Under the pieces are notes generated by a model. That model made no database searches. It was not told where the DNA came from and saw only the letters and a list, made by a program, of their open reading frames with translations. A stretch of DNA of 64,000 bases from Shigella phage TB004. Positions 15,191 to 17,792 of the stretch are shown here, piece by piece (the first letter of the stretch is position 1; each line of letters begins with the position of its first letter). The DNA lies in the sequence record MW822011. One strand, written 5' to 3'. The position numbers and the translations under genes were made by a program.

Positions 15191-15219
15191 ATATGCTTTA
15201 AGAAATATTTGTTATTATT
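15190..15219 (+). promoter_or_regulatory. candidate middle promoter (MotA-box-like ATGCTTTA, 15 nt, TATTAT) upstream of the tRNA cluster
   Basis: TGCTT motif and -10-like hexamer at appropriate spacing. Confidence 0.35.
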
Positions 15220-15287: not shown

Positions 15288-15360
15288 TGGGAATTAGCCA
15301 AGTTGGTAAGGCACTGGATTTTGATTCCAGGATGCAAAGGTTCGAGTCCTTTATTCCCAG
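15288..15360 (+). tRNA. tRNA-Gln (anticodon TTG)
   Basis: Hand-folded cloverleaf, GGTTCGAGTCC T-arm; no encoded CCA. Confidence 0.8.
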
Positions 15361-15361
15361 C

Positions 15362-15448
15362 GCGAGAATGGTCAAATTGGTAAAGGCACAGCACTTAAAA
15401 TGCTGCGGAATGATTTCCTTGTGGGTTCGAGTCCCACTTCTCGCACCA
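15362..15448 (+). tRNA. tRNA-Leu (anticodon TAA), long variable arm
   Basis: Acceptor GCGAGAA/TTCTCGC, anticodon loop CTTAAAA, CCA encoded. Confidence 0.8.
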
Positions 15449-15453
15449 AATTT

Positions 15454-15527
<74 letters not shown>

Positions 15528-15537
15528 ATTTAATTTA

Positions 15538-15611
15538 CTCCGTGTAGCTCAGTTTGGTAGAGCGTCTGCTTTGGGAGCAGAATGTCGCAGGTTCAAATCC
15601 TGCCGCGGAGA
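15538..15611 (+). tRNA. tRNA-Pro (anticodon TGG)
   Basis: D-stem GCTC/GAGC, anticodon loop TTTGGGA, GGTTCAAATCC T-arm. Confidence 0.8.
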
Positions 15612-15613
15612 CT

Positions 15614-15703
15614 GGAGGCGTGGCAGAGTGGTTTAATGCACCGGTCTTGAAAACCGGCAGTCGCTCCGGCGACTCATAGGTTCAAATCCTATCGCCTCCG
15701 CCA
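15614..15703 (+). tRNA. tRNA-Ser (anticodon TGA), class II
   Basis: Long variable arm, anticodon loop CTTGAAA, CCA encoded. Confidence 0.8.
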
Positions 15704-15708
15704 GTTTT

Positions 15709-15784
15709 GCTGATTTAGCTCAGTAGGTAGAGCAACTCACTTGTAATGAGAAGGTCGGCGGTTCGATTCCGTCAATCAGCACCA
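15709..15784 (+). tRNA. tRNA-Thr (anticodon TGT)
   Basis: Anticodon loop CTTGTAA, GGTTCGATTCC T-arm, CCA encoded. Confidence 0.8.
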
Positions 15785-15785
15785 A

Positions 15786-15860
15786 GGCCCTGTAGCTGGA
15801 AGGTTCAAGCAAGCGACTCATAATCGCCAGATGGTGGTTCAATTCCACCCAGGGCCACCA
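15786..15860 (+). tRNA. tRNA-Ile/Met-type (anticodon CAT; the T4 homologue is the AUA-reading tRNA-Ile)
   Basis: Acceptor GGCCCTG/CAGGGCC, anticodon loop CTCATAA. Confidence 0.7.
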
Positions 15861-15873
15861 AATTAAGAATTAA

Positions 15874-15960
15874 GGGGAGTTATCCCGTAGAGGTAGCGGT
15901 GTGGACTGTAAATCCATTGTCATTGCGACTCGGGTGGTTCGACTCCATCACTCCCCACCA
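15874..15960 (+). tRNA. tRNA-Tyr (anticodon GTA), class II; not in the T4 set
   Basis: Anticodon loop CTGTAAA, long variable arm resembling E. coli tRNA-Tyr, GGTTCGACTCC T-arm; D-arm atypical. Confidence 0.6.
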
Positions 15961-15964
15961 ATTT

Positions 15965-16038
15965 GGATGTGTAGCTCAGTGGTAGAGCAGTTGACTGTTA
16001 ATCAATTGGTCCATGGTTCGAATCCATGCATGTCCGCC
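15965..16038 (+). tRNA. tRNA-Asn (anticodon GTT); not in the T4 set
   Basis: D-stem GCTC/GAGC, anticodon loop CTGTTAA, T-stem CATGG/CCATG. Confidence 0.7.
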
Positions 16039-16164
16039 AAATTTGTGACAACTGTCACATTAATATCTACTTGACGCGATTATAGGGTTGAACTGATCAC
16101 TCTTCTCTTAATTTCGTGTGAAGACATCTTGATTGTTGGAGTAGGTATTAATGTGAACTAATTA

Positions 16165-16241
16165 CGGGGTGTAACTCAATTGTATAGAGTAGCGGTCCTC
16201 TAAACCGCAGGTTAAAGGTTAGAATCCTTTCACCCTGGCCA
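16165..16241 (+). tRNA. tRNA-Arg (anticodon TCT)
   Basis: Anticodon stem GCGGT/ACCGC, loop CCTCTAA, CCA encoded. Confidence 0.7.
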
Positions 16242-16262
16242 AATTATTGAGAGAATAATATT

Positions 16263-16817
16263 ATGAGAAGTGATGTAGACTGGGACCAAATTAATTTGGC
16301 TATAAAAGCTGGATTAATATACCGTGGTAATTTTGAAATAACACAAGAACTAATTGAAAATGTTGCTTTTCTTAAAATAACAGACAAGAAAAAATTCTTT
16401 TCTATGACTAAAGCCAAACGCTTGTCAATATGGAAAGTATTTTGTAGGACTGCCGCCCTAAATCTTTTGAAATTTAAAGATGAATTTGATATAGAAAAAA
16501 GCTATCGGCAAGCTTTCGTATACATAATGGTAGATACTACAAATCCTAATTATTATAAAATAGGAAGAAGTATAGAACCCGATGTTAGAGTTATAACAGC
16601 AAATACATTTTCACCGTTTAAAAGTTTTAAAATAGTATCATTTAGATATTCCCAGGATGCAGTAGAACTTGAAAAATATATGCACAGCATTTATAATCAG
16701 GACCATATAAATGGCGAATGGTTTTTCTTTCATGACATAAGTTCCATAGTTAAAAAATTAGATACTAAATCTACACAATTTGAAATACCAAATGAGAAGC
16801 CGGGTCGCTACCGGTAA
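16263..16817 (+). CDS. T5orf172/MUG113-like (GIY-YIG superfamily) domain protein, possible homing-endonuclease relative
   Basis: 184-aa ORF with FVYIMVDTTNPNYYKIGRS motif, directly after tRNA-Arg. Confidence 0.5.
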   Translation: MRSDVDWDQINLAIKAGLIYRGNFEITQELIENVAFLKITDKKKFFSMTKAKRLSIWKVFCRTAALNLLKFKDEFDIEKSYRQAFVYIMVDTTNPNYYKIGRSIEPDVRVITANTFSPFKSFKIVSFRYSQDAVELEKYMHSIYNQDHINGEWFFFHDISSIVKKLDTKSTQFEIPNEKPGRYR

Positions 16818-16889
16818 GTCGTCGGACTGATGTTCCCTGCGTAAGGACTGGTCTTAATAAATCTTTACGATTTGTTAATATCCCCTTAC

Positions 16890-17065
16890 ATCACAGCAGA
16901 AACGGCGCACCGAATTATCGATTCGAGGAAATATCTTTGCCGTAAGCCGAGTAGCGTTTTTGACGGAACGTTCGGATATGGTCGAGATATGGCCTTTTAA
17001 AAATATTGAGTAGCGTCAACTACTTAATAACCGGGTTCGAATCCCGGCGTTTCGTACAAACACTT
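16890..17065 (+). ncRNA. candidate small stable RNA with tRNA-like T-arm, in the position of the T4 tRNA-cluster stable RNAs
   Basis: About 350 nt without a credible ORF; CCGGGTTCGAATCCCGG T-arm-like hairpin; terminator follows. Confidence 0.3.
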
Positions 17066-17097
17066 GCCTTAGCAGGTGGAACCCCGACAAGGTATAT

Positions 17098-17127
17098 AGC
17101 CCCTTCCGAAAGGTTGGGGCTTTTTTG
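17098..17127 (+). terminator. rho-independent terminator (AGCCCC...GGGGCT + T6)
   Basis: 6-bp GC stem followed by TTTTTT. Confidence 0.6.
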
Positions 17128-17135
17128 TATAAATA
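17128..17135 (+). promoter_or_regulatory. late promoter TATAAATA
   Basis: Exact TATAAATA 35 nt upstream of the ATG at 17171. Confidence 0.5.
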
Positions 17136-17170
17136 TAGTAAACAATAAACCTACTTTCTAAGGACCATCA

Positions 17171-17551
17171 ATGTATACTTTTAATGAATTTTTAGCCGAA
17201 ACGGAAGTAATCACCGAAGCCGGCGTACGTATGACAAAAGAGAAATGGCAAGCTGCTTACGATGCTATTTCTGGTACAAAAACTAGTACAGAGTTTTTCA
17301 AAAACGTTCAAGCCATGTACGGTATCGACACTTCTAGCCAAAAAGAATATTACAGAGCTTCTAAAGCATTCAAAGATATTGTTAGTGGTGGTGTTTCTGC
17401 TAAATCGGGTTCGCCTAAAGTAAAACCTGCTCCTACCATTCCTAAACCTGCGACCCCTAAAGCAAAACCTGAGCCTAAGCCGGAAGTAAAAGCACCTCCT
17501 AAAGCTCCTGCTCTTAAGTTTGATACTTCTAGCCTGGAAAAAAAAATATAA
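17171..17551 (+). CDS. hypothetical protein with internal-protein-like N-terminus (MYTFNEFLAE) and Pro/Lys-rich tail; ends inside an A9 tract
   Basis: 126-aa ORF; N-terminus resembles the targeting sequence of the ip genes; stop is 2 nt after a run of nine A. Confidence 0.5.
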   Translation: MYTFNEFLAETEVITEAGVRMTKEKWQAAYDAISGTKTSTEFFKNVQAMYGIDTSSQKEYYRASKAFKDIVSGGVSAKSGSPKVKPAPTIPKPATPKAKPEPKPEVKAPPKAPALKFDTSSLEKKI

Positions 17552-17792
17552 ACAACTATCTTCGCTTGTTCGTGATATTGAATCCGATACATCTTCACTC
17601 GTTCGTGAATTCAATAGTCTTCGCAATGGCCAACATATCAACAACCTTGATACCCCAGACCTTTATCGTCTTTATTTGACTATCGAAGGTTTGAAGTATA
17701 CTCAACCACTTCACGATGCGATTAAAGAAAAACTTCGTCAGGCAGGTCGTTTGGCTGCTGACGCTGCTCAGTATGCAAAAACCCGTAAATAA
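17520..17792 (+). CDS. reading frame continuing the upstream gene after the A9 tract (no ATG of its own)
   Basis: Open frame with no in-frame ATG; one fewer A would fuse it to 17171-17551. Confidence 0.35.
   Translation: MILLAWKKKYKQLSSLVRDIESDTSSLVREFNSLRNGQHINNLDTPDLYRLYLTIEGLKYTQPLHDAIKEKLRQAGRLAADAAQYAKTRK

Follow-up and report, generated by a model that had tools for sequence, protein, structure and literature searches.

An open reading frame (ORF) located next to a tRNA-Arg gene of Shigella phage TB004 is probably a free-standing homing-endonuclease gene, belonging to the T5orf172 branch of the GIY-YIG superfamily and specialised on phage tRNA-gene arrays. It occupies positions 16263-16817 of the stretch of 64,000 nucleotides (nt) analysed here (sequence record MW822011; hereafter, the window), from an ATG start to a TAA stop, and encodes 184 amino acids (aa) on the + strand, where the RNA genes and the promoter-like and terminator-like elements described below also lie. 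The window corresponds to a T4-type phage, nearest to Tequatrovirus and Mosigvirus isolates. The first-pass annotation of this DNA had likened the ORF to the T5orf172/GIY-YIG superfamily and its site to a typical landing place of selfish nuclease genes, and this reading is supported by its patchy carriage, by the existence of alternative occupants of the same slot, by its spread over four phage genera and by a recombination breakpoint at the edge of the gene.

Position of the ORF between tRNA-Arg and rnaD

We located the stable-RNA genes by aligning their annotated T4 counterparts to the window. The homologue of rnaD (T4 species 2 RNA; 16792-16911) shows 87.6% identity to the T4 gene and that of rnaC (species 1; 16918-17056) shows 99.3%; neither rnaC nor rnaD has a matching family in Rfam. 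The gap from tRNA-Arg(TCT) (16165-16241; ARAGORN and Rfam) to rnaD is filled exactly by the ORF, whose ATG lies 21 nt past tRNA-Arg, after a leader at 16242-16262, and whose 3' end, TAA stop included, is overlapped for 26 nt by the 5' end of rnaD. The claim that the ORF interrupts the tRNA/stable-RNA region was, hence, accurate. The final nine codons and the stop (NEKPGRYR*) belong to the 5' end of rnaD. In T4, the distance from tRNA-Arg to rnaD is 1 nt and segB is on the opposite side, upstream of tRNA-Arg; we found no match to T4 segB anywhere in the window.

The first 8 nt of the ORF (16263-16270) are the same as the first 8 nt of rnaD (16792-16799), ATGAGAAG. Also, 14 nt at the end of the ORF, ATACCAAATGAGAA, equal the T4 junction, consisting of the 3' end of tRNA-Arg, one A and the 5' end of rnaD, and ATACCA (16785-16791 region, at the ORF end) is found as well at the 3' end of the T4 tRNA-Arg; homologues, too, keep the Pro codon that is involved. 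The shared ATGAGAAG and the ATACCA/ATACCAAATGAGAA sequences may be insertion footprints, too short for proof.

Patchy distribution and mosaic boundaries

In tblastn searches of 50,697 phage records, the ORF protein was retrieved with more than 90% aa identity from 15 records and with 78% from three others, whereas the adjoining rnaD/rnaC segment was present in 733; carriers thus number ca. 18, or about 2-3%. Counting more distant homologues, 339 phage records gave a match. The ORF is absent from relatives with 96-98% identical tRNA genes, and a comparison of its presence and absence among relatives, as suggested in the first-pass annotation, returned this patchy pattern. Carriers belong to the genera Tequatrovirus (UFV-AREG1, teqskov, 236Ecol005PP), Mosigvirus (LF82-9), Gaprivervirus (VR7, VR26) and Dhakavirus (ESCO10); across these four genera the ORF product shows 91-99% aa identity and is accompanied by a tRNA-Arg gene with 97-100% identity. 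The tRNA-Arg/ORF/rnaD/rnaC block of VR7 shows 93% DNA identity to the window, versus 80% in the nearest alignable flank.

The slot between tRNA-Arg and rnaD exists in at least four states: empty, as in T4; occupied by an unrelated ORF of 114-116 aa; occupied by the ORF described here; or containing both in tandem, as in ESh27. The unrelated ORF (MKGNVYLVVHDL...; L002 2629-2979, L003 2439-2783, L009 3042-3386 and L017 1834-2178) fills the slot in 426 records, matches nothing in Pfam and might be a further mobile cassette. It likewise stops at the rnaD boundary.

The left edge of the cassette was placed at ca. 16155, where homology to the ORF-less phage SHBML-50-1 stops. In a segment-by-segment comparison with other Tequatrovirus and Mosigvirus carriers, the spacer upstream of tRNA-Arg is 95-97% identical, and tRNA-Arg, the leader and the ORF are 98-100% identical. 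From rnaD onward, however, identity to those carriers is ca. 90%, versus 98-100% to the ORF-less Mosigvirus moskry and S143_2. In the alignment, the switch from the ORF-carrying haplotype to the moskry-like Mosigvirus haplotype occurs at ca. 16792-16799, that is, at the ORF/rnaD junction, and the genome is mosaic across this point. T5orf172 and other nuclease genes have been reported to "occupy boundaries of genetic exchange" (PMC10448857).

The stretch 16792-17700 is 98-100% identical to moskry and S143_2, and either unmatched or ca. 90% identical in the Tequatrovirus-type carriers that share the tRNA genes and the ORF; an ORF of 126 aa at 17171-17551 is part of this Mosigvirus-like segment.

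Domains, conserved residues and selection

The protein matches the Pfam families MUG113 (PF13455; E = 4.5e-9, 37.2 bits versus a cut-off of 22.3) and T5orf172 (PF10544; E = 4e-6, 27.7 bits versus a cut-off of 20), both over residues 85-155, and the peptide singled out in the first-pass annotation, FVYIMVDTTNPNYYKIGRS, corresponds to residues 85-103. The GIY-YIG profile (PF01541) remained below its Pfam cut-off (13 bits versus 22.6, E = 0.13), such that the T5orf172 half of the assignment proposed earlier stands on its profiles and the GIY-YIG half stays under threshold. MUG113 and T5orf172 are also the precomputed Pfam domains of 12 out of 12 close homologues. In PHROGs, the protein matches phrog_5032 (function not annotated) over its full length (residues 1-176, E = 1.6e-59), and weaker matches carry the names endonuclease or homing endonuclease; likewise, the annotation of some T5-like homologues reads 'putative homing endonuclease' or 'GIY-YIG nuclease family protein'. 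There was no match in NCBIfam and no sequence match in the PDB. PADLOC matches (PDC-S57 and the C-terminus of PD-Lambda-1) were discarded, as they reflect merely the shared T5orf172 domain.

An AlphaFold2 model built from 13 sequences, with a mean predicted local distance difference test (pLDDT) of 90.7 and a predicted template modelling score of 0.85, shows two domains. The N-terminal domain, of ca. 80 aa (16263-16502), contains four helices at residues 7-15, 28-37, 42-47 and 50-73, with pLDDT values of 89-95. The T5orf172/MUG113 domain (residues ca. 84-170; 16512-16772) is modelled as strand-strand-helix-strand-helix, which is moderate evidence in the right direction for a GIY-YIG fold, and is the presumed nuclease domain. 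Foldseek yielded template modelling scores of ca. 0.7 over 161-175 columns to proteins of T5-like phages and 44RR2.8t, and no significant fold match against the PDB; among the fold-search matches, 'DNA-binding' is a domain label in UniProt-derived names. The N-terminal domain is kept in full-length homologues and is presumed to be a DNA-recognition module. Its 82 residues retrieve nothing above threshold in Pfam, and the protein contains a single cysteine and no zinc-finger cysteines.

Tyr87, Lys99, Gly101, Arg109, Pro118, Glu137 and Glu152-Trp153 show no variation across 20 homologues, down to 20% identity. In position and spacing, Tyr87, Arg109 and Glu137 would match the first tyrosine, the arginine and the glutamate of GIY-YIG enzymes, a correspondence whose spacing was judged by eye and to which hhalign lent no support, since the family alignment gave no meaningful alignment with the I-TevI catalytic domain. 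The motif residues of I-TevI are Tyr6, Tyr17 and Arg27; the spacing in the ORF protein is 11 residues from Tyr87 to Tyr98 and 11 from Tyr98 to Arg109, compared with 11 and 10 in I-TevI. The T5orf172 protein Odn, from phage ICP1, cleaves DNA in vitro and needs for this the Glu aligned with the catalytic Glu of I-TevI (PMC8263062).

The ratio of nonsynonymous to synonymous substitution rates (dN/dS) of the whole gene versus its homologues is 0.10-0.13, indicating that the ORF encodes a protein under purifying selection and is not a chance ORF. For the N-terminal domain, dN/dS was 0.06-0.13 in comparisons with VR7 and ESh27, and between ESh27 and KpV477; both domains show similarly low values in every pair that is diverged enough, the LF82-9 pair having too few differences. 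The C-terminal tails read from the RNA genes vary among homologues. The junction with the RNA gene is probably where the functional protein ends.

Three short proteins, P0016 (68 aa), P0020 (55 aa) and the BFVD entry A0A173G9Y8 (UFV-AREG1, 68 aa), resemble the family over its N-terminal 53-67 residues only. Frameshifts, decay of the gene or sequencing errors in older versions of the records may explain them; the current record of UFV-AREG1 encodes the full 184 aa.

Association with tRNA genes in other phages

The association with tRNA genes was evaluated in about a dozen contexts inspected by hand. In the T4-like carriers among them, the ORF starts 15-21 nt past tRNA-Arg(TCT), except in ESh27, where it follows tRNA-Met. 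Linkage to tRNA-Arg(TCT) was seen in the four genera of Escherichia coli phages, in Klebsiella phage KpV477 (58% identity) and in Serratia phages PS2 and Muldoon (55-57%). Homologues from T5, BF23, RN29 and 44RR2.8t are also situated between tRNA genes, with their 3' ends 10-39 nt inside the next tRNA. For instance, T5p067 and BF23 trn 2.8 start 21 nt after tRNA-Cys and end 24 nt into tRNA-Asn, and ORF121c of Aeromonas phage 44RR2.8t follows tRNA-Tyr and ends 27 nt into tRNA-Lys; the overlap is of 10 nt with tRNA-Lys for BF23 trn 2.12.1 and of 39 nt with tRNA-Arg for the RN29 homologue, and the KpV477 homologue, after tRNA-Arg, extends 10 nt into tRNA-Thr. A distant homologue from a Vibrio phage has no tRNA nearby, such that the association applies not to the whole domain family but to the subfamily of T5p067, BF23 trn 2.8 and 44RR2.8t ORF121c (phrog_5032), to which the ORF belongs by full-length similarity, N-terminal helical domain included. 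A search of IMG/VR with a narrow alignment retrieved three loci, all of them duplicates of known phages.

The tRNA array and expression signals

The tRNA-Arg(TCT) gene is the tenth and last of an array spanning 15288-16241; the other nine (Gln, Leu, Gly, Pro, Ser, Thr, Met, Tyr and Asn; 15288-16039) were also identified by ARAGORN and Rfam tRNA matches. Its loops are unusual, with a T-loop TTAGAAT and a D-loop AATTGTATA, and as a result U19:A56 appears in place of the near-universal elbow pair G19:C56. The same variant is found in VR7, S143_2 and moskry, and the loops are canonical in T4, SHBML-50-1 and KpV477. Moreover, its T-arm, GGTTAGAATCC, does not follow GGTTCRANTCC, the core of the site that SegB recognises (PMC2330249), and given this deviation the gene might be resistant to SegB-type cutting.

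The spacer of 125 nt between tRNA-Asn and tRNA-Arg (16040-16164) is at the position of segB in T4. It contains a palindrome, GTGACAACTGTCAC, and the spacer is common to SHBML-50-1, where tRNA-His comes next. The general tRNA model of Rfam was silent for tRNA-Tyr (15874-15960) at E<=1, the best match being a sub-threshold one to tRNA-Sec (34 bits), and its equivalent in SHBML-50-1 is annotated as a pseudo-tRNA. Phage tRNA-Tyr is the target of the Septu defence (PMC13096335).

A promoter-like element upstream of tRNA-Gln (15194-15218), with a MotA-box-like TGCTTTA (15194-15200) separated by 12 nt from TATTAT (15213-15218), is the likely source of the ORF-bearing transcript, judging from its motifs. 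An imperfect G+C hairpin followed by a T run (17098-17127), after rnaC, is the likely end of the tRNA/ORF/stable-RNA transcript; it was missed by a simple scanner, is conserved in relatives, and has a parallel in T4, where transcription stops after the species I RNA (PMC2330249). Together, the MotA-box-like promoter and the hairpin suggest a single precursor transcript. A Shine-Dalgarno-like GAGAG (16249-16253) lies 9 nt ahead of the ATG, and the leader is kept among ORF-carrying phages. We found no significant hairpin (z = -1.6) over the ribosome-binding site and start codon, of the type proposed for segB.

The ORF also contains a strong sigma-70-like site (16669-16697; TTGAAA, 17 nt, TATAAT; 11 of 12 positions), ca. 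95 nt upstream of rnaD. It could serve rnaD and rnaC as their own promoter in carriers; such sites are not above chance in the region.

Relation to known systems

The closest counterparts in layout are 172-aa ORFs from the T5-type tRNA region. T5p067 from T5, presumably the 172-aa ORF behind the T5orf172 domain name, is a full-length homologue with a similar two-domain arrangement (BLASTP E = 7e-15; 29% over residues 14-170), and BF23 trn 2.8 and trn 2.12.1 show the same layout. The annotation of the VR7 copy of the ORF already points to similarity with BF23 'ORF172c'. They differ in showing only 24-32% identity, in belonging to Demerecviridae and in their flanking tRNAs, and we found no biochemical characterisation of these homologues in the literature cited. 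BF23 ORF trn 2.1 was considered as a second homologue and rejected, because it does not align.

Seg proteins carry their GIY-YIG domain at the N-terminus, unlike the ORF protein, whose presumed nuclease domain is C-terminal. SegB of T4 is a GIY-YIG homing endonuclease that cuts tRNA-gene DNA at a site with the T-psi-C motif GGTTCRANTCC, and in crosses it is inherited at nearly 100%, carrying along neighbouring tRNA genes (PMC2330249). Like segB, the ORF is a free-standing gene of the same tRNA operon that adjoins tRNA-Arg and is missing from relatives; unlike segB, it is downstream of tRNA-Arg instead of upstream, and the two proteins share no detectable similarity (BLASTP E = 0.57). It has been proposed that SegB is kept scarce because its message is severed at the stop codon when tRNA-Arg matures (PMC2330249).

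The ORF shares its Pfam domain with ICP1 Odn (Gp88) and with the T5orf172 homing genes, which are treated as homing endonuclease genes and are enriched in T5-like phages, T4 itself having none (PMC10448857). Like those located at exchange boundaries, it has a breakpoint at its edge, the ORF/rnaD junction. However, the ICP1-type proteins mostly use zinc-finger modules (CapR, DUF723 or DUF4397) or RepA_N for DNA binding, and their genes are near terminase, ribonucleotide reductase or capsid genes (PMC10448857), whereas the ORF protein has an unrelated helical N-terminal domain of 80 aa and its gene is sited among tRNA genes. Finally, F-TflI, F-TflII and F-TflIV, from the tRNA region of T5/BF23, are also homing-type nuclease genes placed between tRNA genes, and processing of the precursor has been proposed to regulate their expression (PMC2330249); hegA (F-TflIV) is annotated in BF23. 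They differ in belonging to the HNH superfamily, with no homology to the ORF.

Proposed mechanism and alternative explanations

For a homing endonuclease, DNA cleavage, a target site, homing and a control of expression can be inferred as follows. The ORF would be transcribed within the tRNA/stable-RNA precursor. When the same cell is also infected by a relative lacking the gene, the helical domain at the N-terminus would bind a site in the tRNA-Arg/rnaD region of that relative's DNA, and the C-terminal T5orf172 domain, with Tyr87, Arg109 and Glu137, would cut at the recognised site. Recombinational repair, with the carrier genome as template, would next transfer a copy of the ORF to the recipient, often along with the neighbouring tRNA-Arg. 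Since the ORF stops inside rnaD, 5' processing of this RNA would sever the message, keeping the nuclease scarce. A bolder version of this scheme is tentative and rather doubtful: a homing-nuclease lineage with an undescribed helical recognition domain, targeting tRNA/stable-RNA junctions, with its expression gated by precursor processing through a stop codon in the next RNA gene, and shuttling tRNA genes, such as the U19:A56 tRNA-Arg(UCU), between genera.

Several observations weigh against a homing endonuclease. No DNA-binding fold can be recognised in the N-terminal domain, which also lacks the zinc fingers of the CapR/DUF723 type that T5orf172 homing genes usually encode, and Tyr98, the second tyrosine of the motif, varies in the wider family. 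The conserved RNA genes account partly for the higher identity of the cassette between genera. Lastly, purifying selection and a linkage to tRNA-Arg that lasts down to 55% identity also fit a gene that is useful to the phage.

This last point leads to a first alternative, unlikely in our estimation, in which the ORF encodes a domesticated T5orf172 nuclease that cuts competitor, satellite or host DNA, or that drives rearrangement or amplification of tRNA genes, with homing being secondary or absent. Apart from the persistent tRNA-Arg(TCT) linkage and the dN/dS of ca. 0.1 in both domains where measurable, there are precedents in Odn, a T5orf172 nuclease deployed against a satellite (PMC8263062), and in SegB, which amplifies tRNA and anti-defence genes (PMC13096335). 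A carriage of about 2-3% of related phages, however, implies that the gene is dispensable, near-identical copies in four genera together with an edge breakpoint are the signature of a mobile gene, and the protein lacks a satellite-like or replication-origin-like specificity domain.

It is quite improbable that the product is a non-catalytic DNA-binding or regulatory protein, with the nuclease fold reused as a repressor in the manner of the satellite protein CapR, a domesticated relative. The names among the fold-search matches and the original 'T5 Orf172 DNA-binding domain' annotation do say DNA-binding, and the second motif tyrosine varies; but Tyr87, Arg109 and Glu137, needed for catalysis in GIY-YIG enzymes and Odn, are invariant, and a patchy, mobile distribution is unexpected for a regulator.

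A vertically inherited accessory gene, made patchy by repeated deletion and with no nuclease-driven mobility, is very improbable. The tRNA regions of T4-like phages are plastic, and tRNA sets do differ between the loci compared. Nevertheless, the ORF is 98-99% identical where the right flanks are only ca. 90% identical, the right flank of the window is 98-100% identical to that of ORF-less phages, and the gene maintains 91-94% identity in genera whose neighbouring genes show ca. 80%. As for an RNA-directed protein acting on tRNAs or their precursor in processing, repair or cleavage, it would account for the siting among tRNA genes and is highly improbable. In all, the catalytic-type residues, the carriage of about 2-3% and the mosaic boundaries argue, to differing degrees, against every one of these alternatives.

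Significance

Homing endonuclease genes of this kind are already known, and less documented are the presence of a T5orf172 gene in T-even-type phages, its fixed place after tRNA-Arg(UCU) and its distinct N-terminal domain. The finding is sound yet fairly ordinary, and would otherwise be a routine case of a selfish phage gene. If the product is an active homing nuclease, T-even-type phages would have, in addition to SegB, a second nuclease family carrying genes into and out of their tRNA clusters, and a small T5orf172 enzyme of 184 aa with a new recognition domain would be available for biochemistry. SegB amplifies tRNA genes, thereby overcoming a tRNA-cutting bacterial defence (PMC13096335). 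Likewise, a homing gene beside tRNA-Arg(UCU) could spread tRNA variants between phage genera and, should the targeting of tRNA/stable-RNA junctions be true, it would provide a SegB-independent exchange of tRNA genes, relevant to the escape of these phages from tRNA-cutting defences.
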